DNA of 64,000 nt from Eledone cirrhosa (GCA_964016885.1 OZ024741.1:386756001-386820000); one strand, 5' to 3'; shown: positions 9,361-57,353, numbered from the stretch's first letter. Numbers and translations are program-made. The notes: a model not told the origin generated them from the sequence alone.

Positions 9361-9592
9361 TTATTATTATTATTATTGAATGCCATGGTTGACGGAGGCT
9401 CGGCTCTGTAAGGTATAGTAATTTTTAACCGTTAAAACAATTGTAAATTGTTTAAAACTTGAACCAAATTGTTGATAAAGACACCCTCCTCCTCGTGAGA
9501 GGGGTCTTTCTGTCCGTTATTTGGCCCTTCGGGGTTAAATAACCAGTTATTGGGGTTTTGTATCCAAAATTTCATTTTAAACAAAAAACAAC

Positions 9593-11689
9593 ATGGCTAC
9601 GAAAAAGAAATTTCATACGTCACTCCCACTCAATCCGTCTTCTTCTTCCTCAATCATCACTACAGCAGAGAGAAGATTGTCTCTCTCCCTCCCTTCTTTA
9701 AATGTGTCTCTCTCCCTCCCTTCTCTTTCGCAAGTGACGAAAGAAAAGAAAAGTCTCGTGCAAAGCGTGCAAGGTTTCTCCACGACGACGACGACAGCGA
9801 CGAAACAGGTGTGCGGGAAATACGAAAACCCAGTTCATTCGTCTGACGTCAGGAATAATAGCAGTAGCAGCCGTAATAACAACAGCAACAGTGACAATGA
9901 AAACAACAGTAGCAGCCGCAACAGCATCACCAGCAGCATAAACAACAACAGCATTAGCAGCAGCAACACCAACAACAACCACAGCAACAGCGGCGGAGGC
10001 AGTAGTCGTAGTACCTGCACCAACAACAAAAGTACCAGCAGCTCTGACGACAACAACAACAGCAGAGAAAAACCAATCTCATTTGCAGGTATTGCGAAAA
10101 ACTTGGAAACAATCCTCATAACAAATGAGGAATTAGAGGAAGCGAAGAAGATGGTGACAAAGAACGGACACCGAGCAATCTGCAAGGCAGCAGAAAAATT
10201 TTTCGAAACCCAAGAGCACTGTACGGTCACGTACCGTACAGTAAGTACAAAATCCCGTAGGGTGGAAAGAGCCACAGAGGCCCAAATACAAAAAGCCTTG
10301 GGGTCTGTGTGGCAGCGGAAAACGAACATCACCCGAGGCAAAAAATATGCCACCGTAGACGTACTTTTTGCCACACCCCAGGAGGCAAAGGCCCAATCAG
10401 TAGTGACCCTAAGGAGCGAGGAAATGGTGTTGGTGCCCTCCTACTGCGGGCAAAAAATTGTGAGGGTCAAACTGACCCACGTCCCCCCCGGAATGACCCC
10501 TTCTTGGCTGGCCGCGTCTGTCCTCGTCGGAATCGAGGACAAAACAACTGTACTGCAAGTACAGAAAAAAGTAAGAGAAGATTGGGTCGGCTCCTCCATT
10601 GAGATGCTAATCCAAACCAACCAGGAGTGCATCGAAGCTATCCCGGATGTGATAGACTTCGATAACGGCACTCAACTGCCCATAAGTGTTGAGGGCAAAC
10701 GCCCGAAATGCTTTCGCTGTGGATCGAAGACTCACCTCAGGGCCTTCTGCAACGAGAAGACCCTGAGAAAGGAGAAAACCCCCCTCCTTCCGAATCCGGC
10801 TCCACGGCTACCAGCAACAGGACAAGCGGCAACCAGGAACGATAGGCCCGTGGCACCCATACCCACTCCACGGAAATCAAAAACAGCAGCAGCAGTGGAA
10901 ATATTAACAACAACAACAGCAATACCAAATGCAGCTGCAACAGAGACTCCAGTGCAAACATCACCAACAACAACAAGTGAAAGAGTGGAGCTGGTACCCC
11001 TCCCCGACCTCACAGAATCAGACATGGAGTGTGAGGTGGGGGAGGGATGGCAAAAGGTCGCAAGAAGGCACAAACGCAGAAGCAGCGCATCGTCGCCTTT
11101 GAAAAGGGAGGAAAGAAATGAGAAAAGGGTAAAGTCTACTGCAAAGAGACCCACAGCAGCAACACCATCAACACCATCACCACCCACACTAGCACCACCA
11201 TCACCACCGGCGACAACCCCACCGCCAACAACACCTTCAACACCACCACCACAAGCACCAACATCGCAAACACAACAACAAAACACACACACCCAGCAAC
11301 AACGACAAGAAAATAGCAGAACCACACCCCACCCCCAGAAAAACAAATGCACGGCAATAAACACACACAACAAGAAACTAATGACTTACATAATTGAACA
11401 CACAGACATTTCACAACAGGACTACATAATACCAGCACCAATCAAAACGCCAACTAACATAAGACTGCTAAAAATAGCACAGAAACAATACACAAACATT
11501 AAAACGAAATTCCCCAACGCAGTTGGTGATTTCAGGGACCTAGGAGGAACCATCAATCGAAGAGTATATTCAGACATTCTCTTAGAAGAGCCGACGACCA
11601 GCCGAAGGGACGATTCAACGGTCCCTTCACCAGACGATCAAGTGAAAAGGGATGTAAAAACCATCCCTCCTCTACCAAAAGTACGGTAA
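9593..11689 (+). CDS. LINE ORF1 gag-like protein with zinc knuckle, 698 aa
   Basis: Open ATG-to-TAA frame; CFRCGSKTHLRAFC knuckle; homologous to the ORF1 at 6957; S/N- and P/T-rich low-complexity segments. Confidence 0.85.
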   Translation: MATKKKFHTSLPLNPSSSSSIITTAERRLSLSLPSLNVSLSLPSLSQVTKEKKSLVQSVQGFSTTTTTATKQVCGKYENPVHSSDVRNNSSSSRNNNSNSDNENNSSSRNSITSSINNNSISSSNTNNNHSNSGGGSSRSTCTNNKSTSSSDDNNNSREKPISFAGIAKNLETILITNEELEEAKKMVTKNGHRAICKAAEKFFETQEHCTVTYRTVSTKSRRVERATEAQIQKALGSVWQRKTNITRGKKYATVDVLFATPQEAKAQSVVTLRSEEMVLVPSYCGQKIVRVKLTHVPPGMTPSWLAASVLVGIEDKTTVLQVQKKVREDWVGSSIEMLIQTNQECIEAIPDVIDFDNGTQLPISVEGKRPKCFRCGSKTHLRAFCNEKTLRKEKTPLLPNPAPRLPATGQAATRNDRPVAPIPTPRKSKTAAAVEILTTTTAIPNAAATETPVQTSPTTTSERVELVPLPDLTESDMECEVGEGWQKVARRHKRRSSASSPLKREERNEKRVKSTAKRPTAATPSTPSPPTLAPPSPPATTPPPTTPSTPPPQAPTSQTQQQNTHTQQQRQENSRTTPHPQKNKCTAINTHNKKLMTYIIEHTDISQQDYIIPAPIKTPTNIRLLKIAQKQYTNIKTKFPNAVGDFRDLGGTINRRVYSDILLEEPTTSRRDDSTVPSPDDQVKRDVKTIPPLPKVR

Positions 11690-11724
11690 GTGGTCTTTCC
11701 CATCTTTTCCACTCTATTTTAAAC

Positions 11725-14700
11725 ATGACCTCACTCAGAATAGGCAGCATAAATGCGCGTGGCTTGGGGTCGTCATGGAAGCAGGGTCACCTGCTCAACG
11801 ACCTCAGGTCACTAAACATAGATGTAGTGGCCATCAGCGAGACCAGAATCTCCGAAGCACGGGCTTTCGCACCGATCTTCGGCGGCTACGATGTGTACGC
11901 ATCTCCCAGCCGTCCTGGATCGGGTGGAGGAGTTGCTGTGCTTTTTCGGAGAGGTTTGGATCTCGCCATACGGGCCATCTTCCTGGACCCAGAGGGTAAG
12001 CTGGTGGTGCTGAACGTGACCAGCGGAGACGGGCAAGCTTTCAGGCTAGTGGCCGTCTATGCCCCGACAGGAGCAGGGCGGCCTGATTTCTTCCGGCGTC
12101 TGGAGACCTTTCTTGGAACGTCCCGCTCTTTAGTGTTAGTGGGCGACTGGAACGGGATCTTAGATGCACGCTGGGATTGTGTGGGATTAGTGGATAGGGA
12201 AGGAGGGTGCAAGAGTCTCACCAACCTACTCAGACGTTTTGAACTGTCTGACAGGTACCGAATGGATTTCCCGAATGTACCAATGTGGACTTGGACAAAT
12301 CGCATAGGGTCATCCAGATCATATCTAGATAGAGTATTTTGTAGGGAAATAGATAGGTCTAGCATAGGCTGTCCACAATTCAAGATAGTCAGCTACACGG
12401 ACCACAAATTCGTGACCTGTGTGCTTGACTTAGATAGGCTTCATAGACGAGGACCCGGCTACTGGAAGCTAAACGCGTCCTTACCAGCGCGCAAGGCCTA
12501 CAGAGACCGGATTAGCGAACTAGTTAAGCGGGCGTTGACGGGGGCCATCGTCAACAACAAGTGGTGGTTTGCTCTGAAAAGAGCGATTAGAATAGAATCG
12601 ATTAGGTTTAGTAAGGCTTTAGCAATAGAGAAAAATAGAGCAGAGGGAGAACTAGTTAGAAAATTAGATGAGGCGCTTAGCAAAGGCATCGCGACCGACG
12701 TGCTTGCGGCGAAATTGGCCCTTGACCAATTCTTCAATGCAAAGCACGAAGGCTGCGTTGTCAGAGCTAGGGTGCGTGCTCTCAGACACGAGGGGACGAA
12801 AGCCGTTCAATGGGCCCGAGTGGCGGAGGCGCGTCGTGGCAACAAAGCCACGATCCGGTCTTTGGTGGACCACGACGGGCGCATGCTACTCGATCCCGGG
12901 CAAATGTGTGAAGCTTTTCAGCGACACTTCGCTCAGCTGTTCGGGGGCAGCGGTGGGCCGGGTAGAGGGATGGACTTTAGTGTCTACCTCGACGGACTGC
13001 CGCGGCTCTCGGCCACTGAGGCAAGTGTTGCGAAAAGCCGATAACAGCCGCTGAAGTAAGGGAGGCAATGACTGGCTGCACAAGGGGTAAATCGCCTGGT
13101 TTGGATGGTCTGCCCTATGAACTTTACGTACAGATGCCAGACTTGTTCGGAGGCCTCTTGGCGGACGTCTACTGCAACTGGCAACAGAACGGGAGAATTC
13201 CCAGTTCTGTGAGCCGAGGAGCGGTGGCACTGCTGAGAAAGGATCCGAACAAGGGGGATAACATAGATAATTTTAGGCCCATAACTCTGCTAAACACAGA
13301 GTTTAAGATTTTGGCCAAGGTGCTAGCAAAGAGGTTGGCGCTTGTCGTTGGTGGTCTGGTGGGAGAGGCGCAGACATGCGCCATTCCCGACAGATCCATC
13401 CACGACAACCTCCACCTCATGCGATACATCGTAGAGAGGGTAGCTAGGGAACCTGGCACGGGTGGGTCCTTGATCAATTTAGATCAGTCGAAAGCTTTCG
13501 ATAGGGTCGACCATCGTTACCTAGCGGCAGTCCTGAGGGCGGCTGGCTTTGGGCCCGTCTTCAGAGGCTGGATCGCTGCCATGCACAGCGACATCTGCTC
13601 TGTGGTGAGAGTGAACGGTCACCTGTCGGAACCGTTCAACATCATGCGCTCGGTCCGCCAAGGATGTCCCCTCTCGTCCCTCTTGTACGTATTGACTCTC
13701 GAGCCATTACTGCACAAACTGGAGACGTTGAGGGGAGTCCCGCGCGAACTAGGATGCGGAAGATCCGTGTCAGCATATGCGGACGATGTCACCGTAGTGG
13801 TGTCGAACGCCAAACACATCGAGGCGATCGGCACTACACTAAGAGAATACGAAGCGGTAACAGGAGCAATGATCAACCGGGAAAAGTCAGTGGGCCTGCA
13901 GCTCGGCACCTGGAGAGGCAGGTCCATGCCGTCCAACAGCGTCGTCGGACGCTGGACGGACGGACCGGTTAAATTGCTAGGGGTCTGGTTCGGTCCGGAC
14001 CTCCAGACGGACAAAAACTGGGACGAGGTGACGAGCAGGGTGGCTTCTCTCACCCAGAAATGGGCGGAGAGGAAGCTATCCCTGAAAGGTCGAGCGGAGG
14101 TGGCTAACGCGTACATCGCGTCTGTCATCTGCTACCGCCTGACCGTCGTACCTTGTCCTAAGCCTCGCCTGACTGCGCTGGAGCGTTTGCTCTTTCGCTT
14201 TTTCTGGAAGGGACGTGCTCCGATGGTCAGGCGGTCCATCTGTTGTCAACACCCGCTACGTGGAGGGCTGGGCATGCCGTGGCTGATGATGCGCAGGCAC
14301 GCGCTCAGGCTACGACATCTCCACCTCTTCCTCGACGGTGATCAGGTGTGGTCGCCGTTTGCTAGGCGCGTATTTCCCCAGCTCGTTTCCTTGACGGAGC
14401 TGCAGTCCTGGGTCAAGCGAAGACCGAGAGGGAGCGCCTGGAGACTGGAATGTCTTCAGGCGCTCACAGCCCTCGACCAATCGGGCAATGTGATCGGTGG
14501 AAACTCCACCTCGGCGTTCTATAGAGGATTAGTGGAGGGTAAGAGCGACGACGTACTTGGGGAAACTCTAGGCGTCGACGAAAATCAACTAGCCAATCTC
14601 TTCGGAAGAACTTTCGGGCCGGGGCCTATGGACAACTTCCAGAAATCTCTGGCCTGGCAGTGCTACCGAGGAGCCTTGCCAGTTCGGGATAAACTCTACA

Positions 14701-15143
14701 GGCATGGAGGTGCTGTCAGCCGGGCATGTCCGAGATGCGCGCAGGGCGACGAAACCGTCCTGCACGCACTCGTCCAGTGTCCGAAAATTGCTGACTTGTG
14801 GGTTTATGTCGAACACCTGCTGTCGCGTTTAGGACGGATCCAGCTATCATCTAAGTCCATCGTGAGGATTGCCCCGCCCTCCTCCTTTAGCCGGGAAGGG
14901 CAGGCAGTTTTTATCTGTCTGGTGGCCATGGCGAAAGAGATAGTATGGTGGACACGTTTGAAAGGGCTGAAGACGAGCACTTACCTCTTCGGTGATGCTC
15001 TGATTGACTTTTTCAAATTTCATTTGAAAAGGAAAATCAGAGTAGAGAGGGAAGTGCTCTCTTCCCAGCATTTTGTTGAAAGATGGGTGAGAGAAGCAAG
15101 AATGGCCCGAGTGAATGGGCCTTCTCTGAGTATATATCTGTAA
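11725..15143 (+). pseudogene. LINE ORF2 (AP endonuclease, reverse transcriptase, C-terminal CCHC) with one frameshift near 13025
   Basis: APE motifs SINARGL, SET, VYAP, GDWN, SYLDR, TDH. RT motifs KSPGLDGLP, FRPITLLN, DQSKAFDRV, RQGCPLS, YADD. C-terminal CPRC..ETVLHALVQC. Restoring one base gives EAKCCEKPI, matching EAKFCEKPI in the minus-strand relative. Confidence 0.92.
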
Positions 15144-15402
15144 ATTAAAGGTGGAAAACTGGGAGAGGGCACTTGCCTTGGTGGTCAGGGTCATTGTGGC
15201 TTTTTACTGGGCTTTCTCCACAAATGTCCCTCCGAAGTCTCCCCCCTATTGGGGAATTTTTCATTATTATTTTCATTGTTATTTTTGTTACATCCTCTGT
15301 TTTTGTTTTTTACACGCAGAAATGCCCATTTGTACCGTCCTGCATTGTCCTGCACTGTCCTTAATGTCTACTTTATGTAAACCCTTGTGGTTAATAAAGA
15401 AA

Positions 15403-15439
<37 letters not shown>

Positions 15440-15461
15440 CATTCGTTTTCGTATTTTTCAG

Positions 15462-15726
15462 TCTTACGTCACGTGTACCCTGGGCATCGATTACGTAGGG
15501 TACTGTATGATCACCATGGGTCTGGCTAATGTTCTCAGTTCTGTTATGGTTGCACTCTGTGCCAAATATATTCCCAGAGAAGTGGTACTCGGCTTCGGAG
15601 GGGTCGTACATATCGGACTCATGATTGGATTCCTTATATGGATACCCGAAAAAAATCTGTTAATATTCTTTATCCTGGCAGCATCGTGGGGTGTCTGTGA
15701 TGCAGTTTGGCAGACGCAGTGTAACA
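15462..15726 (+). CDS. UNC-93 family (UNC93A-like) MFS membrane protein, penultimate coding exon
   Basis: Acceptor TTTTTCAG; peptide [17 protein letters not shown]...[13 protein letters not shown] typical of the UNC-93 C-terminal half; donor A|GTAAGT (phase 1). Confidence 0.85.
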
Positions 15727-19499: not shown

Positions 19500-21277
19500 G
19501 CTTAGTCTTCGCAGGTTTGACAAAGTACCAGATTGGTGACTGGTGTGAATACGACCACTGAAACTGAAGAAACTGCAGTATGATGAAGAAAACAAAAAAG
19601 AACCATACGGGAGTCTCCATTTCATGTCGCAAAAACTGTCGGTGGGCTTGCAACCTGTCCAGGGAGGCTTGGGATGGACGCACAAAGATTGCGTATCCCG
19701 ATACCCCAATGAGGGTCCGGAAGGGCATAAACCTTGACAATTGTAACCTGGTACATCACCCCATTACAGGAACTAGTGAAGGAAGCTAGATGCCGCCAAC
19801 TAGATATAGTTGTGGTTTCCTCAGCAAATTTCCGTGGCTCTAACACTGTAGATTTAGATGGAGGATGGAAACTCCACTATTCAGGTGCGGCACCAGAAAT
19901 GATTTCACAAGGGGGAATGGTGATACTCACAAGCCCCTGGAGGTCAGAATGTGTTATGGACTGGATACCGTTAATAGAAGGATTTGCCTCTTGAAGCTTG
20001 GGCTGAAAGATAGGTCTCTGTGTGTGGTGCAAGTTTATACACAAACCAAGAAATGCAGGGAGGTTGTCGAGTCTAAGCTAGCTGATAAACAGTGCGGCTT
20101 TCGCTCTGGACGCAACACAGCCGACTAAATATTCGCACTGTGGCAGGTCTTAGAGAAATCATGGGAGTATTGCCAAGAGGTATATTCTTGTTTTGTTGAC
20201 CTTGAAAAAGCATATGACCACGTTCCTCGGGACCTGGTATAGAAGTATGGGATCGATGGTCAGCTCCTTGTTGTCCTGATTTGAATGTCAGAGCATTTGT
20301 GTTTTGATAAATGTTGCTAAATCGAAACCATTCATTTTGGGAGTCGGACTCCGCCAAGGGACTGTCACCTCTCCTGTTCGTTATTTACATGAACAGGATT
20401 GACATGTCCAGCCAGGTTGTAAGTGGTATCATAACGGGTGGGTGTAAAATCAGTCGGCTGGAATTTGTAGACAACGTGGTGTTACTTAATGCGACAGAAG
20501 GTGATCTCCGACTTGCAGTCGATAGGTTTGATGCCGAGTGCTGCATGGCTAGAATGAAAATCAGTGTTACGAAAACTAAGACACTCGTCCTCTCAAGGAA
20601 GCCTGCTCAATGCACGCTACATGTAAATGGAGTTCCACTGAAGCAGGTAGAGAAGGTCGAGTATCTTGGGGCTGTGTTCATGAGTGAAGGAAGGCAGCAG
20701 GCTGAATTAAGTGTAAGGATTGCAGGAGCTGGTGCAGTAATGTGTCAACTTCAGTATTCGGTAATCAGAAGAAGGGAGGTAGGTATAAAAGCCAAACTCG
20801 CTATCTTCAATTTGATATTCGTGCCAACCCTTACCTATGGTCATGAATCTTGGGTAATGATCGAAAGAACACGATCACGAATACAAACGTCCGAGATAGG
20901 GTTCCTGGGAAGGGTCTTTAGAGTAACATTACTCGATAGAGTGCGTAGCTCAGAGATCATAGAGTTGTTTCAAGTAGAGCCGCTACTTCTCCGAATTGAG
21001 AGACCAAAGTTCCGATACTATGGGTATGGGGTTAGAATGTCTCAGGAACAAATCGCTGGACAGATTTTTTTACAGGCAACACCAACCGGCGAGAGACCCA
21101 GAGGTTGACCCCGAGAACGTTGGTTGGATAATATCCATGAGCTTGGCTGGTCTCACTTCCCCAAATGAGGCCAGCTGGATCAGTTGGAGACGGTTGCTTC
21201 TGACAGAATCCACAGAAAGGAGTATTTGAGGTCTCTGCCCTCACGACACTCTAAGGAATAAATGGGTGAAGAAGAAT
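19500..21277 (+). mobile_element. RTE-clade LINE, degenerate and internally deleted
   Basis: APE start (IVTWYI..ELVKEA..LDIV..GWKLHYSG) is joined near 20045 to RT (QCGFRSGRNT, FVDLEKAYD, LSPLLF, FVDN, YLG, PTLTYGHESW, GERPRG). Ends in a GAAGAAGAA tail. Confidence 0.85.
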
Positions 21278-24966: not shown

Positions 24967-25559
24967 AATTATTATCAGGCAGTATCAGTAGAGCGTTGAA
25001 CAACGTGCTTTGCAGCATGGAGTTACGGCCCTTTATGTTCTGAGTTCAAATCCCGCTGAAGTTAACTTTGCTTTTCATACTTACGGCGTCGATAAAATAA
25101 AGTACCAGTAATGCATTGGGGTCTATTTAACCGGCTTTCCCCTTCCCTTCAAATTGCTGGCCTTGAGCCAAATATAGAAACAATTATTATTATTATGCTA
25201 GGAGTTACGACTGGCTGAGAGTATCAGCAAGGGAAAGACTAATGGAAACAATGTTTCCTTGGCCCCATTTGACGAATTCCTCCCCACTCGAATGAGGTCT
25301 GGGATCTTATCGATTGACCGATGAATAATCTATATATAAATTTCTGCGATTCTGTTACAACACGTAAAGAGAGGGATGAGTAGTTTGACTACGTCATACT
25401 ACTCCTCCCTCTTTACTACAAAAACAGGGTGCTGCTACTACTGTTGCTATGACTACCTCATACTACTCCTTTCTCTTTATATCTGATGTAAGAAATAACA
25501 GGCAATCAGTGGAGAATATAAAAATATTATAAACATTGGTTTTCTGGAATGTTGTCAAG

Positions 25560-26425
25560 TATTTTGATCGGCTCAGTCCTTTGTAAGTCTCACAATGCAA
25601 TCAGTGGAAGTACCACTTCGGCGTTTTATAGAAGACTAGTGGTGAGTAAAAGCGACGACGTTCTCGAAGAGATTTGGGGCATCTGCATAAAGTAACTGGC
25701 TAATCTTTTCCGGAAGAATATGGACAATTTCTAATTTGGCAGTGCTAGCGAGGGGGCATTGTCAGGTTTGGATAAAATTTGCAGGCACAGAAATGCTGCC
25801 AGCTTGGCCTGTCTAAAATGTGCACAGAGCAACAAACCGATATACACGCGCACGTACAGTTCCCGAGCATTGTTGTCTTGTAGAGCTATGTCGAATAGCT
25901 GCTATCGTGTGTAAGATGGATCCTGCTATTTACTGTGAAGAGCACCCCACCGCCTTTCTTTGGTCAAATAGTGCAAGTAGATTTAATCTGTTTGGTGGAT
26001 ATGGCGAAAGAGGATGTGTGGTGGACAAGATTAAAAGGGTTGAAGATAGAAACTTTCTTCTTTGGCCAAGCTGTCACAGACTTTTTCAAGTTTCACTTGA
26101 AAAAGAAATTGAGGGTGGAAAGAAAGTGCTGTTTTCCAGCAAATTTGTTGAAAGCTAGGTGAGAATAGCGAGCATGATCCGAGTGAAGGAGTTTTCTCTA
26201 GGTATGCACCTACAGATTGGAGAAGGGCCGTGACTTTTTCTATGTGCATAAACGAAAGTCACCACACTATTAGGGAATTTTTCTTTGTTTCATTTTATTG
26301 TTACCCATTTTGTTTTCCTTTTAATTATTTCCTTATTTTACACGTTTTTCGTGTAAACCCACTCTGTATTGCCTGCACCATCCTTCATCTTTATGTAAAC
26401 CCTTGCGGTTAATAAAGACACCACT
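25560..26425 (+). mobile_element. Old degenerate Tx1 3' fragment ending at (ATC)n
   Basis: Homologous to 14490-15404 (ICLVDMAKEDVWWTRLKGLK..FFKFHLKKKLRVER). Ends CCCTTGCGGTTAATAAAGACACCACT, then ATCATC repeats. Confidence 0.8.
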
Positions 26426-26522
26426 ATCATCATCAGCATCAATATTAATCATCATCATCATCATCATCATCATCATTATTATTTTTTTTTTTTTTTTTTT
26501 TCTTATATAAATAATAAAAATA

Positions 26523-26617
26523 TTTACACGCACAAAACCCACATCGTACCGTCCTGTACCGTCCTGTGCCGTCTGTAATGTTTTTCTTGATGTCAGCCCT
26601 TGTGGCCAATAAAGAAA

Positions 26618-26619
<2 letters not shown>
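26523..26619 (+). mobile_element. Tx1 3'UTR-only fragment followed by (ATT)n
   Basis: TTTACACGCA...GTACCGTCCTG...CCCTTGTGGCCAATAAAGAAATC then ATT repeats. Confidence 0.8.
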
Positions 26620-26747: not shown

Positions 26748-26983
26748 CTCTGATCTGTTTGACCTGCCTAGATGAACCGGATGTGGCGTTCGCCAACTAC
26801 CGGATGCTACAGAGCTTCGGACTTACAATTGCCTTTGCTTTTGGGACGTTCATGTGTGTAGCAGCTCAACTCTACTTACTGATGACATTGCTCGTAGTAG
26901 CTATTATGTGCTATGTACTAGCCGAGTACAAAGTACGACAGACCGATTCCGAAAATAACAGCTTCGATGACGAGCGACACTAA
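26748..26983 (+). CDS. UNC-93 family protein, terminal coding exon
   Basis: Pyrimidine tract and TTTTCAG acceptor. Phase 1 matches the previous exon (A+CT = Thr). Peptide VAFANYRMLQSFGLTIAFAF...LAEYK then stop. Confidence 0.85.
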
Positions 26984-28424: not shown

Positions 28425-28563
28425 GTAAGTGTATGTATGCATACATACATACACACACACATATATATACATACACACGTATATATATATATACATACAC
28501 ACATACATACATACAACTATCACTAAATGAAACTAAATCCCATTTTGCAGTTGTTAGTATAAC
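28100..28563. repeat. Inverted repeats of about 50 bp enclosing compound microsatellite
   Basis: AGTTATACTAACAACAGCAAAATGGGATTTAGTTTCATTTAGTGAT and its near-perfect reverse complement ending at 28563. Confidence 0.8.
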
Positions 28564-29576
28564 TTGGTGGATTGGCAGTATCAGTAGAGGGTCGGACGCC
28601 ATGCTTTGCAGCAAAGAGTTACTTCCCTTTACGGACTGAGTTCAAATCCCGCCGAGGTTAACTTTGCCTTTCATCCTTACGGGGTCGATAAAATAAAGTA
28701 CCAGTAATACACTGGATAATTGCTGGCCTTGTGCCAAAAGTAGAAACAATTATTTATATATTATTTATAGCATGCTCAGCATAATCTATTATACAGTATA
28801 TATAATAATTATGATAATTTTAATTGACTACAATGGCTGAAGATACTATAACTATGATATAGAAATAACATTTAATGCAAGAGGGTTAGCTGGGTTGGTA
28901 AGTTAGGAAACTGTAAGTTTAAGCCAGGAGAATTGAACGAATAGCCATTGGCAAAACCCATTTTTATCTACAATGACTTCACAGCATTGCTGCTTCCGCC
29001 ATCTTCATCATCATCATCATTATGATTATTATCATAACAAAAGGCGACGAATTGGCAGAATTGTTAGAGCGTCGAACAAAATACATTGTAGCATTGAGTT
29101 ACAGCCCTTTACGTTCTGAATTCAAATCCCGCCAAGGTTAGCTTTGCCTTTCATCTATATGGGGTCGATAAAATAAAGTACCAGTAACGTATTGGTGTCG
29201 ATTTGGGGCGGTGGATTGGCGGTATCGGTAGAACGTCGGACAACATGCTCTGTAGCATTGTTACGGCTCTTTATGTTCTGAGTTCAAATCCCGCGAGGTT
29301 AACTTTGATTTTCATCCTTACGGGATCGTTAAATTAAAGTACCAGTAACGCACTGGGGTCGACTTTGATCGACTTTCCTCTCCCCCAAAATTGTTGGCCA
29401 TGTACCAGAATCAGAAACCATTATTCATCATAATAATGGTTTCTACTTTTGGCACAAGACCAGCAATTACCCAGTACATTACTGGTACTTTATTTTGTCG
29501 ACCCCGTAAGGATGAAAGGCAAAGTTAACCTTGACCTTCTCATCGTCGCCCTCAACACCACTGCCACCACAACCAT

Positions 29577-29658
<82 letters not shown>

Positions 29659-29812
29659 ACTACTACTACTAATAATAATAATAGCAATAATGATGATGAT
29701 GATGGTGATAATAATTTCCTATGGGTGCCACTAAGGCGATGAATGAAGACGACAGCGATAGCAAGAACACTCATATACACATATATATACACACATATAT
29801 ATATATATACAT

Positions 29813-29860
<48 letters not shown>

Positions 29861-30173
29861 AACAAAACATCAAAATAATTCATGACGATTTTACTACGGT
29901 TGGCGATGGCGATGATGATGATGATGATGAGGGCGACGGCGGCGATTAGACTGGTGAAGTTTGTAATTGTGGTACTGCTGGTTGTGGTGATGGTGATGAG
30001 GATGGTGATGTCGACGATGATTTCAAGCAAACGGTAAAGCTGTCCTCGATGGTTAAAATATATCGATATGTTTTTTTCTACGTGATGTCACCATAGCAAC
30101 TCTTTGAAGAGTTCCGACAATTAGTCTGCTATATAGGTTCCTTTAGCTCATTCACAATTATTCAAACACACAC

Positions 30174-30218
<45 letters not shown>

Positions 30219-30360
30219 TGTGTGTGGGGGGGGGGGGGCGTGTCTGCGTCTGTGTGTCTGTGTGTCAGTTGTGTGTGTGTGTGTGTGTATGAATGTGTGC
30301 ATTTGTGAGTGTGGATGTATATATGTATCTAGATAGATAGGTAGATAGATAGGTAGGTAA

Positions 30361-30415
<55 letters not shown>

Positions 30416-30585
30416 TGAATGTATTACATATATATTTTATATACATTCGTATATTGCTATAAAATAATGACTATACAATATTACAAAATATCTATGTACA
30501 TATAAATGTCGTTATCACTTTTCTGTGTGTATATTAATTAATTTGTGTTTTTATATACGAGACAGTGTATACAGGTATATAAATA

Positions 30586-30628
<43 letters not shown>

Positions 30629-30640
30629 ATATACATATTT

Positions 30641-38619: not shown

Positions 38620-39832
38620 TTAACTGCATGGCGGTGGATTGGCAGTATTGGTAGAGGGTCGGACGCTATGCTTTGACGCATACAGCCCTTGCTATTCTGA
38701 GTTCGAATCTCGCCGAGGTTAACTTTGCCTTTCATCCTTACGGGGTCGATAAAATAAAGCACCAGTAACGTACTGGGGTCGATTTTATCGATTTTCCCCT
38801 CCCCAAAAATTGCTGGCTTTGTGCCTATATAAGAAATTATTATTATTTGAATTGGCAGTATCGGTAGGGGGTTGGACGCCATGTTTTCTAGCATAGTTAC
38901 GTCCCTTTACGATCTGAGTTCAAATCCCGCCGAGGTTAACTTTGCCTTTCATCCTTACGGGGTCGATAGAATAAAGTACCAGTAATGTGCTGGGTAATTG
39001 CTGGCCTTGTGCCAAAAGTAGAAACAATTATTAACTGTCAATAAATCAACTAATCAATAAATCAACATCATAACCTCCTAACGTTTCTCTCTTTCACTCT
39101 CTTTGCCTAAATATATTTCACCTCTTACATTATATCCTATCGTATTCTCTTCACTTCTAACATAACTTCCAATTTATTAATTTATTAATTTAACCAATAC
39201 ATATATATTTAATATTTTCGTGTTTATACCATCACATCTTTATATTTTAACCACCAACACCACAACTATGTTCACTTTTCTTCGCACACATAAATTTTTT
39301 TTATTTTTTATCATCTTCATTATAACTTATTTATTATTATTTATTTATTATTATTTTTTCTTTATCTTTTATCTTTTTTCTTTTTTCTTCTTTCTTTTTC
39401 TCTTTATCTTTTTCTTTTTTTTTTTTCTTTTTCTTTCTTTATTACTGATGTTGTAATTTGAATTTCCCTAGTATATTACAAACGCCGTGTATAATTTTAA
39501 TTAGTTTTTCTGATGATTTGGTTAAGCATACATTGTATTTAAAATTGAGTGACACAACTTCAAGTGATTAGCAATTTTTAGACAACTTAATCAGTGAAAC
39601 AATTGTTAATACTGTAAATAAAACCCTTTTTGTACTGTTGACCATGTTATTCTTCACTCTTTCACTGTTATTACTCCAAGATTAACCTGCATAGTAATTC
39701 CCGAGAACTCACAAACTCGCTACCTAAGGAAACCTCTTGTTGAGTCAAACAACGCCGTACGCTAAAACTATCCACAATACGGAGTATTCACAACCTCTAA
39801 CTGGATTACCTATAACGATAATTTGTTATCCC

Positions 39833-41258: not shown

Positions 41259-42013
41259 GTCCCGTTAACCTCTTATTATCAGTATCGGTAGCGAGTCAGA
41301 CGCCATGCTTTTCAGCATAGAGTTACGGCCCTTTATGATCTGAGTTCAAATCCCGCCGAGATTAACTTTGCCTTTCATCCTTACGGGGGTCGATAAAATC
41401 TAGCACCAGTCATACACTGGGGTCTATTTTATCGACTTCCACCCCCCACCCCACCCACAAAATTGCTGGCCTTGTGCATATATAAGAAACCATTATTACC
41501 AGTATCGGTAGAGGATCAGACGCCATGCTTTCCAGCATAGAGTTACGGCCTATTACGGTTTGAGTGCAAATCCTGTCGAGGTTAACTTTGCCTTTCATCC
41601 TTACGGGGTCGATAAAATAAAGTACCAGTAATGCACTGAGGTAATTGCTGGCCTTGTGCCAAAAGTAGAAACAATTATATATGTAAGATTGCAATCAACC
41701 GTGGGAATAACCACCATTTTATATAACAGACTGAATGAGTTGGGGTGTATAATCCAACGAAACTTATGTACCTGTATATGTCACTGTTGTAACTAATCAT
41801 ATGTGTGTATATATATATGTGTGTGTGTGTGTGTCTGTGTGTGTGTATAAGAACTGTATATTGCTAATATAAAGCAAGTAATATTTCATTGTTCTGGCTG
41901 ATGATATTTATTATATGTTTTTTGTACAATATCTTGTGAGTTCTCTCTGTTCGGATATTTTAGAGCTTTACATTGGTCTACAAGAGGATATATTTTTATA
42001 TACCAATATTTTC

Positions 42014-43549: not shown

Positions 43550-44742
43550 TGAGTTATCTCTAGTGGTCTCTGTCTTTCATCATCGCCGCTATGTCCCGCC
43601 TCTACCATAGACCCCAGTATCTCTCCTTAGGACACCAACATATGTCCTCATCGGTCTCCCTCTTCCAGTGTGTCTATTTAAGAGCTCCCACAGCACCACT
43701 AAGTGCAGTGTGTCTGTTTAAGAGCTCCCACAGCACCACTAAGTGCAGTGTGTCTGTTTAAGAGCTCCCACAGCACCACTAAGTGCAGTGTGTCTGTTTA
43801 AGAGCTCCCACAGCACCACTAAGTGCAGTGTGTCTGTTTAAGAGCTCCCACAGCACCACTAAGTGCAGTGTGTCTGTTTAAGAGCTCCCACAGCACCACT
43901 AAGTGCAGTGTGTCTGTTTAAGAGCTCCCACAGCACCACTAAGTGCAGTGTGTCTGTTTAAGAGCTCCCACAGCACCACTAAGTGCAGTGTGTCTGTTTA
44001 AGAGCTCCCACAGCACCACTAAGTGCAGTGTGTCTGTTTAAGAGCTCCCACAGCACCACTAAGTGCAGTGTGTCTGTTTAAGAGCTCCCACAGCACCACT
44101 AAGTGCAGTGTGTCTGTTTAAGAGCTCCCACAGCACCACTAAGTGCAGTGTGTCTGTTTAAGAGCTCCCACAGCACCACTAAGTGCAGTGTTAACTCTGA
44201 ATGTCGGTGAGCATATCCAGCTAACCTTAGTCTCCTCCGTGTCATTTTCGAGCTGACTTTTGGCAGGTTCCCGTGTAGCTCTGAGTTCTTCATCCGCAGT
44301 GCATACTGATTAATGTTCAGAGCTATCCTCAGCATCCTCGTGTAGCACCCATCCACTATCTGAGTGAGTCTCTTGATCAGTGTCCAGACTCTTGATCAGT
44401 GCACAGACTCCACTATAGCGACGTAGTGACGGATCTTCAAGTCTTTACGATCAAACTGTGAAACGCCGCCCAGGCTTTGCTCTTCTTCTTCTCCGCATCA
44501 TCCTCTGTGTTCCCAATCTTTGCTCCCAGATACTGGAAGTCCTCAACCAGCTCTCTGGCTCTTTGATGTTCTATACCAGATACTTCGTCTTACTCTCGTT
44601 CATTCTCAGCCCACACTCATCGATACAGTCTCCACCTCTCGTAACAGTTCCTCTGCCTCCTTCAACTGTGTATTTGTCACCAGAGCTATATCGTCAGCAA
44701 ATTCAGCATCTGATATCTTTTAGCCTTAACTTTCTTGCTCTG
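43550..44742 (-). mobile_element. RTE-clade LINE 3' fragment
   Basis: Minus strand gives EFADDIAL, VGLRMN..KTK, VEDFQYLGA, DGCYTRMLRIALNI, RRRLRLAGY, TGRGRP. Confidence 0.85.
43671..44190. repeat. Minisatellite, 13 x 40 bp, inside the RTE fragment
   Basis: TGTCTGTTTAAGAGCTCCCACAGCACCACTAAGTGCAGTG x13; only the first unit has a substitution; no spacers. Confidence 0.97.
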
Positions 44743-47839: not shown

Positions 47840-47950
47840 ATGGCTGTACATGCTTGTGTGTAGATATGGTAGTGCATATGTGTGTGCGGACACACACACA
47901 CTCACACACGCGCACATACACTCACACACACATATGTATATATATATAAA

Positions 47951-50900
47951 GATATGTTTCTTTATTAGCCACAGGGGCACAAAAGAAGGGGGCAAATACA
48001 AAGGAGTAAGTTTACATACAATAAAAACGTGTAAAATACTATCTCAAATGCAATTTAAAAGTTAATCGATTTTCCCCAATAGGGGGAGACATTACATATG
48101 GGTAACACATACCTCCGAAAAAATGTGCAACCCTCATCTCCAGGAGTACGAAGAGTTTGTACGCCTTTCCTCTCTTCCTCTTTTTCCTCAACCTACAGGC
48201 TGATATAGAGAGAAGGCACATTCACTCGGGCTATTCTCGCCACTTTTATCCACCTTTCATAAAATTGCTGGGGTACAGCACCTCTCTCTCCATCCTGGGG
48301 TACAGCACCTCTCTCTCCATCCTGATTCTTCTTCCAAAGTGGTATTTGAAAAAAAGAATCAGTTGATGGCCGAAGAGAAAGGTGTCTGACCTCAGCCCTT
48401 TTAACCTTGTCCACCATACAACCTCTTTCGCCATAGCTATCAAACAAAGGAAAACCGCCTCTCCTTCGTTTTTGAAGGAGTGTGGCGGTTTGATCATGCC
48501 AATGGACTCGGTGGTCAACCGGATTGGTCCCACCCGCGACAATAGTCGTTCTACATAGCCCCAGGCGGAAGGTCCTACCGAACAGACTGGCCAGTTCGTC
48601 TTCCTCTACGCCTAGAGTTTCTCCGAGAGCGTCGTCGCACTTGCTGCGGACCAACCCTCTATAGAATGACGAAGTGGAGTCTCCACTGATTGCCGGGTCC
48701 GCCTGCCAGAGGGCTGTGAGCGCCTGAGCACATTCGATGTGCCAGTCGCCCATTTTCCTCGGTATTTGCTTGACCCAGGACTGCAGCTCGGTCAGCGAGA
48801 CGAGTCGTTGGAAGGCTCGCCTCATGAACGGGGCCCACACCGGTTGTCCGGTGAGGAATACGTAGAGATGCCGCAGCCTGAGCGCATGTTTGTACATCGT
48901 CAGCCACGGCATCCCCAGCCCTCCGTTGGAAGGGTGTTGGCAGCAGATGGATCTTCTCACCAAAGGAGCCCGCTTCTTCCAAAGGAATTGGAAGAGCGCG
49001 CGCTCCATTTTGGTGAGCGTTTTGGCTGGACAAGGCACGACGGTCAAGCGATAGTAGATGACGGACGCTATAAAAGTGTTCGCCACCTCCGCTCGATCTT
49101 TCAAAGATAGTTTGCACTCGGCCCACTTCTGGGTGAGTGCAAACACCTTGGCCGTCACCTCGTTCCAGTTCTTCTCCACCTGGATGTCCGGACTAAACCA
49201 GACCCCGAGCAGCTTCACCGGTCCTTCCGTCCAGCGTCCGACGACGCCATCGGAAGGCATCGGTTTGCCTCTCCACGATCCGATTTGTAAACCGATGGAC
49301 TTGTCCCGGTTCAGCTTCGCTCCTGTGAACCTTTCGTATTCCTTCAGTAAGGTGCCGACTTCCTCGATTTGCGAGGTACTCGACACCATTACTGTCACGT
49401 CGTCGGCGTAGGTCTACGCCGCTTTCCGCAGTCCCGGTTCCAGAGGGATGCCCTGCAATAGCTCCAGCTTCCGCAGTAGTGGCTCGAGAGTCAGTACGTA
49501 CAGAAGGGAGGAGAGAGGGCATCCCTGTCGGATGGATCGCGTGATATGGAACGGTTCCGAGAGGTAGCCGTTCACCTTGACCCTTGAGCAGATGTTGCTG
49601 TTGTGCATTGCAGCAATCCAGCCCCTGAACACGGGTCCGAATCCTGCCGCCTCGAGCACCGCATCCAGGTAACGATGGTTAACCCTATCGAAAGCCTTAG
49701 ACTGATCCAAGTTGATCAGGGCCCCACCGAAGCCGGATTTACACCATACCCTCTCTACGATGTATCGCATGAGGTGGAGGTTGTCCTGTATGGACCTGGT
49801 CGGGATTGCGCATGTCTGCGCTTCTCCCACCAGGTTTTAGACGACAAGCGCCAGCCTCTTTGCCAACACCTTGGCCAAAATCTGTAACTGTGTTTAGCAG
49901 AGTTATGGGCCGGAAGTTGCCTATGTCATCCCCCTTATTCTCGTCCTTCCTGACTAGCGTGACTACGCCCCAGGTCACAGAACTAGGAATTCTCCCGTTC
50001 TGCTGCCAGTTGCAGTAGACCGCTTCCAGGAGACCGGAGAACAAGTCCGACATTGTTACGTAAAATTCGTAGGGTAGACCGTCGAGACTTGGAGATTTGC
50101 GTTTGCCGCATTGGCTCAGCGCGTCCCCTATTTCAGTGGCTGAAATCGGCTTTTCGCAGAACTTCGCCTCGCTGTCCGAGAATCGCGGTAGGCCGTCGAG
50201 GTATGGACCGAAATCCTTAGCCCTTCCCGGCGCGCCGCCCTGCCTGAACAACTGAGCAAAGTGCCGCTGAAAGGCCACGCACATCTGCTTCGACTCACGT
50301 ATCACGCGTCCGTCTTGGTCCTTCAAAGACCGAATCGTGGACTTGTTGCCACTTTTCGCCTCCGTCAACCGGGCCCAGCTAACAGCTTTGGCTCCCTCGT
50401 TACCCAGAGCACGTATTTTGCTTCTGACAACGCAGCCCTCGTGCTTTGCGTCGAAGAACTGGTCCAAGGCCGTTCTTGTTGCTAACATTCTGGCTACGTT
50501 GCCACTTCTAATTGCCTCTTCTACTTTATCTACCAGTTCCTTCTCGGTCCTATTTCTACCTAACGCTAATTCTTTACTAAAAACTAACGAGTCTAATCTA
50601 ACTGCCCTCTTGAGAGAGTACCACCATCTGTATATATATATAAAGATAGATAGATAAATAGATAGATTTCTTTATTTGCCACAGGGGCGTACAAAAGTGG
50701 GACATTACAAGACCTAACGGCGGGGGTTTTACATAAAATCTTTAACAATAATAATGGATAACAATAAAATATATACAAAATAAAACAATCGAAATCCCCA
50801 ATAGGGGGGAACGTTACTGCAGGGTTGTTTTACACCCCGTGGATAGAACAACCCTCAACACCAGGAACACGTTTTGTAGGTGTTCCCGTCTTCCCTCTGT

Positions 50901-51619
50901 TTGCCTTCCTCAACCTACAGGTTTATATACAGAGAAAGCCCATTCACTTGAGCCATTTTCGCCACATTCATCCACCTTTCAGCGAATTTACTGGGGTGTA
51001 GCACCTCTCTCTCCACTCTCACCTTCTGAAGTGATACTTAAAGAAGGGGATAAGTTGTTGTCCGGAGAGAAAGGTGTTTGCCCTCAAAGGTTTTAACCTC
51101 GTCCACCATATTACCTCTTTCGCCATAGCCACCAGACAGAGGAAAATCTCCTCTCCTTCATTCTTAAATGAAGGCGGCGGGTTGATCCTCACGAAGGACT
51201 CGGCCGACAACTGGATGCGTCCTACACGTGACAGTAGCTGTTAACATAATTCCAGAGGTCGGTCACCCCTGGGCACTGAACAATTGCGTGCATAACGGTT
51301 TCGATGTCCTGCTCGCATCTTGGACAGATCCTTTTGGCAGGATCTCTGCCAGGGCGTCCGTGCCTGTAAATTTTGTCTCGAACTGGTAGAGATCCTCGGT
51401 TGCACTGCCAGGCCAGAGACCTCTGGAAGTTATCCAGAGGCCCTGGACGGAAAGTCCTCCCGAACAGACTGGTCAGTTCGTCCTCCTCGATGCCTAGAGT
51501 TTCCCCGAGAACGTCGTCGCACTTATCCTCCACTAATCCCCTATATAATATCAAAGTGGAGTCTCCGCTGATTGCCGTTTCCGTTTGATGAGGGCTGTGA
51601 GCGCCTGTAGGCACTCGAG

Positions 51620-51697
<78 letters not shown>

Positions 51698-52129
51698 GTT
51701 TCTTTTATTTGCCACTAGGGCATCAAAAGTGGGACAAGTACAAAGGGGGGAGTTTACACAAAAAGGCGTCCTCAATAAGGAGGAGGCAATAACAAAATAT
51801 AAAAATAAAATAAGATATAACAAAAAATAAAATTTTTAACAAAATCCTCAATAGAGAGGAGGCGCCTTGGGGGGTCGCACACACCCCCGAAAAAAGTGTG
51901 CAACCCTTTTCCTCAGGAGCACAGAGAGGGGGTGCTCCCTCGTTCCTTCCTCTTTTCCACCTACAGGCTTATGTAAAGAGAAGGCCCATTCACACGGGCC
52001 ATTCTCGCCACTTACACCCACCTTTCATAAAAACGACTGGGGTGCAGCACCTCTCTCTCCATCCTGATCCTTCTTCCGAAATGATATCGGAAGAAACGGA
52101 CCAGTTGTTGGCCAGAGAGAAAGGTGCCT

Positions 52130-52209
<80 letters not shown>

Positions 52210-54390
52210 TGTAGTGAGAAGGCTGTGGGTTCGAATCACGTTGGGGTTACCATTTGTGGTCTTGCTGCTGGGTTCCCCAAGTCCTTGTATTTTTAATAAT
52301 TCTATAGCTAGAAGGATGTGTATATGGGGTTGGTTTATGATCAGCTATCTGTGTTTCTTCTGTATACAAGCTGTGGTCACAGGTCAAGTTGTATGTACGT
52401 TTATCATCCTGTTTCTTGACAGGACAATCGTGGGAAACTCCCAATAATGGGTGGTCCCAGAGGAGAGAACTCTTAGATTCGTTTTCGAATCTTCGCCGGT
52501 AAGACATAGCAGTATTACGTTACAGATAGATAGATAAGTGGGTGGCTGGCTGGCTGGAAGGATGAATGGATAGGTAGATAGATAGATAGGTGGGTAGATG
52601 GATTGATGGATAGAAAGATAGATAGATAGATAGATTTCTTTATTTGCCACAAGGGTGCACAAGAAAAGGGACAAAACAAAGACACATGCCGGGGATTTTA
52701 CATACAGTCGTGTAAAAATATTGAAACAAACAAATTCAACAATCGAAATCCCCAATAGGGCGAAGGCGCCACAAATGGGTTGTTTAATACCCTGTCGATA
52801 GAACAACCCTCAACTTCAGGAGTATGTTGTGCAAGTGCTCCCTTCTTCCTTTTGCTCTCTTCTTCAACCTACAGGTTTATATACAGAGAAGACCCAATCA
52901 CTCGGGCCATTTTTGCCACATTCACTCACCTTTCAGTAAATTTACTGGGGTGCAGTGCCTCTCTCTCCACTCTGATTCTCCTTCTAAAGTGGTACCTAAA
53001 GAAGAAAATGAGTTGATAGATAAATTTCTTTATTAGCCACAAGGGCACAAAAGAAGGGGACAAATACAAATAGGGAGTTTACATACAGGTATATGAAAAT
53101 AAAACTATTAATACAATAACAAATAACAATTGAAATCCCCAATAGGGGGGGGGGGTTATACAGGGGTTGTACACACCCCGAAAAAATGTACAACCCTCAT
53201 CTCCAGGAGCACCAAGAGTGAGTACTCCCTTCTTCTCTTCCTCTTTTTCTTCAACTTACAGACTTATATAGAGAGAAGGCCCAACCACTCGGGCCATCTT
53301 TGCCACATTCACCCACCTTTTATAAAATTTGCTGGGGTACAGCACCTCTCTCCATCCTGATTCTTCTTCCAAAATGATATTTGAAAAAACGAATCAGTTG
53401 CTCGCCGGAGAGAAAGGTGTCTGACCCCAGCCCTTTTAACCTCGTCCACCATATAACCTCTTTCACCATAGCCATAACACATAGGAAAACCGCCTATCCC
53501 TCGTTGTTTTCGAAGGAGGGTGGCGGTTTGATCATACAGTGGACTCGGTGGTCAACTGGATTGGTCCCACCCGCAACAATAGTCGTTCTTCATAGCCCCA
53601 CAGGTCGGTAACGCCCGGGCAGTGTACAAATGCGTGTGCGACGGTTTCCTCATCGCGCACGCATCTCGGACAGATCTTTTTCGAAGGGTCCCTACCCGGG
53701 CGCCCGTGTCTGTAGAGCTTGTCTCGAACTGGTAGAGACCCTCGGTAGCACTGCCAGGCCAGGGAGTTTTGGAAGTTGTCCATTGGTCCCGGGCGGAAGG
53801 TCATACCGAACAGACTGGCCAGTTCGTCCTCCTCTACGCCTAGAGTTTCTCCGAGCGTGTCGTCGCACTTGCTGCGGACCAACCCTCTATAGAATGTCGA
53901 ATTGGAGTCTCCACTGATTGCCGGGTCCGTTTACCAGAGGACTGTGAGCGCCTGAGCACATTCGATATGCCAGTCGCCCATTTTCCTCGGTCTTTGCTTG
54001 ACCCAGATCTGCAGTTCGGTCAGCGAGACGAGTCGTGGGAAGGCTCGCCTCACGAACGGGGACCAGACCGGTTGTCTGGTGAGGAATACGTAGAGATGCC
54101 GCAGCCTGAGCTCGTGTTTGCGCATCGTCAGCCACGGCATTCCCAGCCTCCGTTTGAAGGGTGTTGGCAGAATGAGTTGATAGATAGATAGATAGATATG
54201 TTTCTTTATTAGCCACAGGGGCACAAAAGAAGGGGACAAATACAAAGGGGTAAGTTTACATACAATAAAAACGTGTAAAATACTATCTCAAATGCAATTT
54301 AAAAATTAATCGATTTTCCCCAATAGGGGGAGACATTACATATGGGTAACACATACCCCCGAAAAAATGTGCAACCCTCATCTCCAGGAG
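47951..54390 (-). mobile_element. Array of six 5'-truncated Tx1 copies (about 47951-50628, 50665-51619, 51696-52130, 52633-53015, 53023-54170, 54194-54390) separated by (GATA)n
   Basis: Each ends GTGGC(A/T)AATAAA(A)GAAA..TATC on the minus strand, and the ORF2 pieces are homologous to 12560-15143. Unrelated sequence lies at 52210-52620. Confidence 0.92.
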
Positions 54391-54517
54391 TAGATAGATA
54401 GATAGATCAGGTGAATAAATATAATTCCTTTAGTCAATGTTCAGATTGAAATATATAAATACATCTATATATGAATAATGGAACTTGAGCAAGTTTTTTC
54501 GCTATTTTTTTCAAATA

Positions 54518-55882: not shown

Positions 55883-56143
55883 GGAAAATGTTCAAGACCC
55901 CGACGGCAGAGCTCAAGCCGTTTCGGCGGCTATTTCTGGACTAAAGTAGAATTTTTTAGCGTGGTAATAAATAGCCGAACTTTTCAAGCGAAATTCCTTA
56001 TATGAGAAGGTTGTAGTTGTTAAAAGGACTGGTCAAAATTTCTTGTAAACACAATTAAATCCTTCATGGTGGTGGGGGGGGGCTGAACTTGCCTGTAGAA
56101 CAATGGGGGAGTGAATTCTATACAGCAAATTCTAAGGCATGTG

Positions 56144-56422
56144 TATGAAATTAGGCTGGCTAGAAAGCAAGCGAAAAAGGAATTCTGGAGGAATCTGAGA
56201 GTGCGAAGTTATAAAATTAAAAAGTTAATAAATTGAGATTAAAAAATGTAAAAAGTAATAAATAAAAATAATAATAATATTAAAAAATTAAATAGTAAAA
56301 ATATTTATTACTTTTTTAATTTTTTAATCTCAATTTATTAACTTTTTAATTTTATAACTTCGCACTCTCAGATTCCTCCAGAATTCCTTTTTCGCTTGCT
56401 TTCTAGCCAGCCTAATTTCATA
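56144..56422. repeat. Inverted repeat, arms about 120 bp, AT-rich spacer
   Basis: TATGAAATTAGGCTGGCTAGAAAGC... and its reverse complement ending ...GCCTAATTTCATA. Confidence 0.9.
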
Positions 56423-56846
56423 GCAGTGTCCATTCTATTCGATAAGCTTCGCTCAGTTTTATCTGTTTATATTCAAATACGACCTTAATTTTCGAGATAA
56501 AATGTCCTCAGCAGAAGTCAAAAACCTTGGAAAATAGAGAAAACGTTTTAGCTTGTATGCGCTAACTTTTCTTTCTGTTTATGCCGTTACTAGTTCGAAG
56601 TGGTAGTAGGAGGTTTGAGAAGTGTTAATTATCATCATCATCATCATGATAATTGCTTCACTTTATCAGCTGATAGCAGTCCAATTATTCCTACTCTTAA
56701 GAACATTTGGTGATTTACAAGGTCTTACACCAAATATGACAGACAAAACTCACCTTCTAAACAGGATTGTTTTTTGTAGTACTTTATGGACGTTGAATGT
56801 TTCTCAAAAAAAAAAAGAAACAGAGAGAGAGAAATGTGTATATAGA

Positions 56847-57353
56847 TAGATATGTTCCTTTATTAGCCACAGGGGCACAAAAGAAGGGGCAAATACAAAG
56901 GGGGAAGTTTACATATAATAAAAACGTGTAAAATATTATCACAAATGCAATTTAAAAATTAGTCGATTTTCCCCAATAGGAGGAGACATTACATATGGGT
57001 AACACATACCCCCGGAAAAAAATGTGCAACCCTCATCTCCAGGAGTACGAAGAGCTTGTACTCCTTTCCTCTCCTCCTCTTTTTCCTCAACCTACAGGCT
57101 GATATAGAGAGAAGGCCCATTCACTCGGGCCATTCTCGCCACTTTCACCCACCTTTCATAAAACTTGCTGGGGTATAGCACCTCTCTCTCCATCCTGATT
57201 CTTCTTCCAAAGTGGTATTTGAAAAAAAGGACCAGTTGTTGGCCGGAGAGAAAGGTGTCTGACATCAGCCCTTTTAACCTTGTCCACCATACAACCTCTT
57301 CCGCCATAGCTATCAAACAAAGGAAAACCGCCTCTCCTTCGTTTTTGAAGGAG
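56847..57353 (-). mobile_element. Solitary 5'-truncated Tx1 copy, GATA-associated subfamily
   Basis: Same 3'UTR as the copies at 47951 and 54194; GATA repeats at both junctions. Confidence 0.9.

Follow-up and report, generated by a model that had tools for sequence, protein, structure and literature searches.

The stretch of Eledone cirrhosa DNA analysed here (GCA_964016885.1 OZ024741.1:386756001-386820000, one strand), the whole 64,000 nt of which we call the window, contains 11 3′ ends of Tx1-like long interspersed nuclear elements (LINEs), four on the plus strand and seven on the minus strand. This report concerns the simple repeats that border these elements and the 3′ end that they have in common. 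A sequence-only reading of the same DNA had proposed a target switch between sister Tx1 lineages and placed it at positions 9378-57353; a further ATT-type copy, E1 (6616-9359), was found to precede that start.

Tx1-like copies and their flanking repeats

E2 (9378-15404, plus strand) is a full-length ATT-type copy with two open reading frames, ORF1 (9593-11689) and ORF2 (11725-15143). Its ORF2 encodes an apurinic/apyrimidinic endonuclease (APE), a reverse transcriptase (RT) and a zf-RVT domain, in that order, and has a single frame break near 13022 that is missing from many other copies in three sequencing runs. E1, on the same strand, has its own 5′ untranslated region (UTR) and its own ORF1 (∼ 6855-8821), in which the frame is broken once; its ORF2 has lost two internal segments. 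The other plus-strand copies are O (25540-26422; 5′ end approximate, 25540-25593), an old 5′-truncated copy that had been taken as the ‘ATC type’, and S (26490-26619; 5′ end approximate), a small piece of an ATT-type 3′ end lying in the repeats that follow O. The minus-strand copies are all TATC-type and all 5′-truncated, each at a different point. The longest, G (47955-50630), begins after the APE and retains the linker, RT and C-terminus. E (50665-51619), D (51697-52131, flanked by (TATC)20 and (TATC)19), C (52633-53016), B (53023-54170) and F (56853-57353, within a decayed TATC array) are 3′ fragments, and A (54199-54392) is a fragment of the 3′ UTR.

ATT stands on both sides of E1 ((ATT)21 at the 5′ and (ATT)6 at the 3′ side), E2 ((ATT)6 and (ATT)11) and S, and TATC on both sides of all seven minus-strand copies, in a single orientation. 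Altogether, the cognate repeat is present at both flanks in 10 of the 11 copies. Microsatellite-specific Tx1 elements have been delimited as those with the cognate repeat on both flanks in > 20% of copies (PMC4494074), a proportion exceeded within the window. As a background, 0.31% of positions have two tandem TATC units within the 14 nt before them, and 0.26% have three ATT units.

G is bounded by a target duplication of 20 bp (47935-47954 and 50629-50648) and B by one of 16 bp (53007-53022 and 54171-54186). Both are unique, include non-repeat bases and begin at the first base past the element. The duplication at B extends into C and copies its first bases; B was therefore inserted later, and C is the older of the two. 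None of the 11 copies has a poly(A) tail. Because the duplications at G and B hold non-repeat bases and poly(A) is missing, the repeats are insertion sites and not tails. The ATT and TATC repeats are real insertion targets of related Tx1-like lineages, and to this extent the different flanking repeats of the sequence-only reading stand. Each insertion would leave target on both sides, so that tandem arrays would build up; the seven TATC copies lie in three independent arrays and the ATT copies in two.

Alternatively, there might be no real targeting, the repeats being tails made by the elements, with copies inserting into each other's tails or persisting in repeat-rich DNA. Most copies are indeed in tandem, the window is dense in microsatellites, and tail and target are indistinguishable in pure repeats. 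However, the non-repeat bases in the G and B duplications need no added units, and at F, A and D the TATC run on the 5′ side has no Tx1 end upstream. The uniform orientation of the TATC copies and a background repeat frequency of 0.3% also speak against such an origin, which we regard as very improbable.

Membership of the Tx1 clade

PF03372, PF00078 and PF13966 all match E2 ORF2 above the Pfam cut-off, and its APE matches L1 endonuclease structures. The RT phylogeny that the sequence-only reading had called for was built from 23 sequences (297 columns). In it, E2 and G join Xenopus Tx1 (P0025) and the TX1-named P0022 in a clade set against L1-like outgroups (90.8/88), a moderate support obtained with few references. 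A CCHC zinc knuckle in ORF1 is a feature of the Tx1 clade; the pattern is visible in ORF1 of E1 and E2, and a Pfam search of ORF1 gave no match. Among named proteins, those closest to ORF2 come from Argonauta hians (69% amino acid identity) and, as a fragment, from Octopus sinensis. A protein labelled Herbaspirillum sp. (metagenome-assembled genome; P0125 / P0244) is 69% like ORF2 of E2, and the tree puts it within the octopod Tx1-like clade; judged by its placement, it is likely to be animal DNA in a bacterial bin.

E1 and E2 are 86-94% alike in ORF2 and the 3′ UTR; their 5′ UTRs are unlike and their ORF1 proteins are 38% identical over 478 amino acids. The alignments point to a replacement of ORF1 between the two copies. 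Reads and contigs of 4 of 24 sequencing runs were aligned to 6598-15470, skipping repeat junctions and leaving flanks unread. The Tx1-like element is abundant and varied in runs X1 and X4, where loose ends match the TATC-type ORF2, and run X22 holds next to nothing matching this region. Coverage of the E1-type ORF1 is high in X1; in X4, once low-complexity bins are set aside, it is far below that of the E2-type. Matches to the DNA motif elsewhere (53 metagenome, 3 genome) are due to chance, as none of the 56 had ORF2 similarity; the motif scan of viral contigs gave no matches, and protein scans for further loci confirmed none.

Flank and lineage

The claim that ORF2 is homologous between the ATT and TATC types was borne out, E2 and G being 69% identical over 692 amino acids. 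The two motifs cited in its favour, GEAQTCAIP and NLDQSKAFDRV, are present in E2 (13362 and 13482, plus strand) and G (49827 and 49707, minus strand) and in these two copies only; a WWTR motif is present in six copies. In a tree of the 3′ segment of ORF2 (eight copies; E1, S and A, which miss the segment, were left out), the six TATC copies form one clade (99.8/100), and a protein tree including B, E and F recovered it again (99.9/100), on a long branch. The TATC copies are 76-88% alike among themselves, except for F and G at 95%. TATC specificity has therefore outlasted several subfamilies. Since E2 and O fall outside the single TATC clade, the trees indicate that the change of target occurred somewhere within the octopod Tx1-like clade.

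That flank tracks clade agrees with the proposed target switch; the sisterhood of the two lineages is not shown, because closer relatives of E2 exist and three trees disagree weakly. P0121, P0122, P0124 and P0243 are 78-83% like E2 at the amino acid level, i.e. closer than G, and their flanks are unread. The RT tree places the TATC branch (G) as sister to all E2-like proteins, outside a group including an Argonauta protein (77.6/65, weak), and the C-terminal trees nest it among the E2-like proteins, also with weak support. It is conceivable that these are two old, separate families, each of which gained its specificity from a loosely specific ancestor, with no direct switch from ATT to TATC between sisters. 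The 31% divergence of ORF2, the closer relatives of E2 with unread targets, the RT tree and the 80 L1-Tx1 consensus families in Octopus vulgaris (PMC13282606 supplement) would fit such a history. Set against it are the nesting in the C-terminal trees and the retention of the terminal motif and its spacing in both types, and we consider it improbable.

A separate ATC-specific type is not supported. In its single representative, the decayed copy O, mixed ATC/ATT repeats are confined to the 3′ side, and neither a 5′ ATC run nor a target duplication was found when its flanks were searched. O is 72% identical to E2 and 59-67% to the TATC copies; it lacks both RT motifs that an ATC-associated copy had been said to share. 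Mixed ATC/ATT runs also border copies of the short interspersed nuclear element (SINE) described below.

The common 3′ end

The terminal motif CCC(T)TGTGGNNAATAAAGA, described as common to all types, is exact in 8 of the 11 copies, and O, F and D each deviate. In E2 it occupies 15380-15404 (plus strand), where it comprises a predicted upper stem with a CUUGU loop and AATAAAGA, the 3′ arm of a lower stem. In the predicted upper stem (3-4 bp, with a five-base loop of CUUGU or close to it) the two variable bases of the motif pair with the two bases before CC; in the predicted lower stem the pyrimidine run pairs with AUAAAG(AA). The distance from the upper stem to the target is 12 nt in ten copies and 13 nt in D. 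This two-part fold is the best predicted fold in 9 of 11 Tx1 copies. RNAalifold recovered the upper three pairs, one of which is G-C in seven copies, A-U in three and broken in one. Our model is that the shared 3′ end folds into a two-part RNA hairpin just before the target. Zebrafish L2 elements are described as requiring such a stem-loop, the loop above all (PMC4176376); ‘TX1’ in that paper refers to names of mutants and not to the Tx1 clade.

A SINE with the same end

The window contains at least 14 copies of a SINE with a B-box-like motif, 12 of them with a 3′ end. The ends of its head are paired, and Rfam gave no tRNA match in 28500-31300. In an example copy (28574-28748, plus strand) the 3′ end is similar to the Tx1 terminal motif, in register with it, and is followed by ATT. 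A 5′-truncated copy (6400-6552, plus strand) has an ATT run that contains E1 and E2. Besides 6552, further SINE 3′ ends lie at 2130, 29438 and 46588 (minus strand) and at 25182, 29419, 31193, 38838, 39026, 41491 and 41673.

A profile was trained on ten Tx1 ends, excluding target bases and holding out D, which then ranked directly after the training set. Under this Tx1-only profile the 12 SINE ends rank 1-9, 13, 14 and 41 among 127,909 other positions, in exact register. A profile made from the TATC copies alone ranks them 1-11 and 18, and one from the ATT/ATC copies alone 2-202. Eleven of the 12 align to the Tx1 end without gaps, and loop and spacing are the same. Pair 9/17 is flipped, being C-G in ten Tx1 rows and G-C or G-U in ten SINE rows. 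The SINE ends are followed by ATTA in 11 of 12 cases and by ATCA in one, never by TATC. The ranks under the Tx1-only profile suggest that Tx1 probably mobilizes the SINE through the shared 3′ end.

In an automated search for SINE target duplications, 3 of 12 copies had one of 10 nt (one mismatch) and four had one of 5-7 nt, too weak to count; the remaining five had none. A hairpin descriptor with 19 matches versus 0.23 in shuffled sequence was not counted either, having been drawn up after both families had been seen. Three SINE dimers are present on the plus strand (38630-39026, 41280-41673 and 29054-29419); in two, the ATT run of the first copy is followed by the second, and the pair at 38630-39026 is bounded by an 11-bp repeat starting with ATT.

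A fragment of a restriction-like-endonuclease LINE (5223-6400, minus strand), matched by R2 chains with E ∼ 0.004-0.005, lies in the same ATT/AAT array; we take it to be Dong/R4-like. It was rejected as the partner of the SINE, being in opposite orientation and lacking the terminal motif. The array (5146-15437) holds three kinds of element: this fragment on the minus strand, the SINE, and two Tx1 copies on the plus strand.

Proposed choice of the target

We suggest, with a probability of roughly 0.6, that a diverged endonuclease picks ATT or TATC and that the shared 3′ hairpin, borrowed by the SINE, fixes the start of reverse transcription, with short pairing between RNA and primer assisting. 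ORF2 would bind the hairpin and the APE would nick the cognate repeat. The RNA, likely reading a few bases into the repeat of the donor, would pair over 4-9 nt with the nicked strand. Copying would then start at the last base of the element, and a second nick 16-20 nt further on would make the duplication.

The position of the arrays bears on this model. Only ∼ 5 nt of TATC at G and ∼ 9 nt at B lie past the junction, and most of the array is on the other side, where a primer–RNA duplex could not read it; this favours choice by the endonuclease. Target choice is described as set mainly by the endonuclease (PMC4494074), and that of Tx1L as nicking its own target almost exclusively (PMC1950540). 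By alignment to L1, the hairpin loop of the APE that reads the target maps near residues 190-200 of E2 ORF2, and it is variable in the four nearest relatives in which it is present. As the sequence-only reading had stated, the APE is confined in the window to the ATT type, whole in E2 and reduced to the first 45 amino acids in E1. The Argonauta protein P0288 shows 63% likeness to G and 59% to E2; because it is unplaced in the tree (60.8/63), its loop was not used as a TATC-type loop.

Several observations weigh against our reading. There are only five independent arrays, all within one window. A search for the TATC-type APE gave six matches, none assignable as TATC-type, and the Tx1L loop grafted into L1 is described as not carrying specificity over modularly (PMC1950540). 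For the hairpin, the covariation score of the Tx1 ends alone was reached by 30 of 500 shuffles and is not beyond chance; that of Tx1 and SINE ends together was reached by none of 500, but related sequences inflate this score. Fold energies are mostly no better than those of shuffles, with z below -2 in one of seven Tx1 ends. The SINE has no lower stem, and of the 11 copies folded, four have the upper stem in their best fold. Its copies belong to one family and hence represent one event. Finally, the SINE end scores higher against TATC-type ends yet sits in ATT, which also fits pairing by the RNA.

Pairing of this kind could go further and set the target. The RNA would carry read-through repeat, a relaxed endonuclease would nick AT-rich sites, and only free ends that pair would be primed; the target would be inherited via the RNA, and one mis-insertion could found a new lineage. 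By the usual spacing of AATAAA to 3′ cleavage, on which the read-through argument draws, ordinary cleavage would fall inside the repeat, as AATAAA ends 6 nt before the end of the element. No poly(A) is copied, and the SINE sites have only their first 4-5 bases in common (ATTA, ATTAT), never TATC despite an end most like the TATC type. For E1, E2 and S, folding predicts that the element pairs with the first four bases of its target (P 0.95-0.98), and RTE elements have been proposed to shift sites by means of 3′ repeats (PMC6007223). However, little repeat lies past the junctions of G and B, the seven TATC copies, which span ∼ 24% divergence, show no switch, and the Tx1L endonuclease is sequence-specific by itself (PMC1950540). 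The predicted fold-back is missing in O and all seven TATC copies (P at most 0.15); being confined to E1, E2 and S, it was rejected as a general feature.

We consider choice by the RNA unlikely, if the most substantial of the alternatives. The wider proposition, that octopod Tx1 elements inherit their target through read-through RNA, with the hairpin as anchor and the carried repeat bases picking the site, is likewise doubtful. If it were true, a lineage, or a SINE copying the hairpin, could change target without a new endonuclease. With ORF2 proteins that are 69% identical, a common RNA end and unlike simple targets, the two types offer a compact means of asking how far the endonuclease and RNA–primer pairing each contribute to site choice.

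Other features of the window

A second LINE at ∼ 33750-35990 (plus strand) has an RT and is flanked on both sides by (CATA)n; its C-terminus is presumably restriction-like. It is likely to represent another microsatellite-specific family. Other retroelement fragments on the plus strand lie at 20311-21108 (RT match), 3132-3806 and 62917-63363 (weak RT similarity). Exons with weak UNC-93 similarity (E 0.04 and 0.01, below the cut-off) lie at 15465-15725 and 26750-26983 on the plus strand; both Tx1-bearing ATT arrays stop 30-70 nt before their splice acceptors. A miniature inverted-repeat transposable element-like long inverted repeat with an AT-rich centre (∼ 56130-56420) lies between F and A. 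A minisatellite at 43666-44191 comprises 13 copies of a 40-bp unit, 99% alike, and an unidentified repeat, at least 200 bp long, occurs three times in nearly the same form, near 33093, 44914 and 46007 (plus strand).

Comparison with known systems

In octopus, L1-Tx1 elements have been annotated (80 consensus families, 13 recently active), in passages that do not mention targets (PMC13282606; PMC8967140). SINEs are given as ∼ 11.6% of the O. vulgaris genome, most recently active families being unclassified (PMC13282606). If our reading is true, the engine of one such unclassified family would be a Tx1 element that shares its 3′ hairpin. In the literature searched, to which Repbase and older key papers did not belong, we found no paper on an ATT- or TATC-specific Tx1 in cephalopods; nor did we find one there that pairs an octopus SINE with Tx1, and Table 1 of PMC3747384 lists neither a Tx1 partner nor an octopus SINE.

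Xenopus Tx1L (P0025; PMC1950540) has the same APE–RT–zinc domain order as E2, and the RTs group together. The two are, however, 33% identical, with ORF2 of 1308 amino acids in Tx1L and ∼ 1140 in E2, and their APE loops differ in length and sequence. The Tx1L target is a DNA transposon (PMC1950540). The (TAA)n-specific Dong elements (PMC3812793) use the same microsatellite as the ATT type, and a restriction-like-endonuclease element shares its array here (5146-6615). They belong to another endonuclease class, and the local Dong-like copy is in opposite orientation and has no terminal hairpin motif.

The stringent LINE/SINE pairs UnaL2/UnaSINE, ZfL2 and monocot L1/ZmSINE2 (PMC4176376; PMC3747384) have a short 3′ stem-loop with a kept loop and a variable, compensating stem that LINE and SINE have in common, as is predicted here; our common part is only ∼ 25 nt. 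A SINE moved by Tx1 has a parallel in SINEU/Tx1-Mar of crocodilians, where mobilization was inferred from the shared target (PMC4494074). SINEU elements have small nuclear RNA heads and poly(A), and the account in PMC4494074 reports no LINE with the SINEU-1 3′ end. In contrast, the SINE described here matches the Tx1 3′ end and has no poly(A).

How APE elements target microsatellites is, according to a review, not well understood (PMC3812793). Kibi in (TC)n, Koshi in (TTC)n and crocodilian Tx1 in (TTCC)n/(TTTC)n belong to related Tx1 families whose microsatellite targets differ (PMC4494074; PMC3812793), so a shift of target within Tx1 is already known from fish and crocodilians. Like the elements of E. 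cirrhosa, they are Tx1-clade LINEs with APE and RT that lie in microsatellites, the repeat unit differing among related families. The likeness is one of description and not of compared sequences, no named Kibi or Koshi protein being among the ORF2 database matches; here, the targets are (ATT)n and (TATC)n and the host is an octopod. What is likely to be new is the predicted two-part hairpin, common to both types and 12 nt before the target, together with its likely partnership with a SINE.

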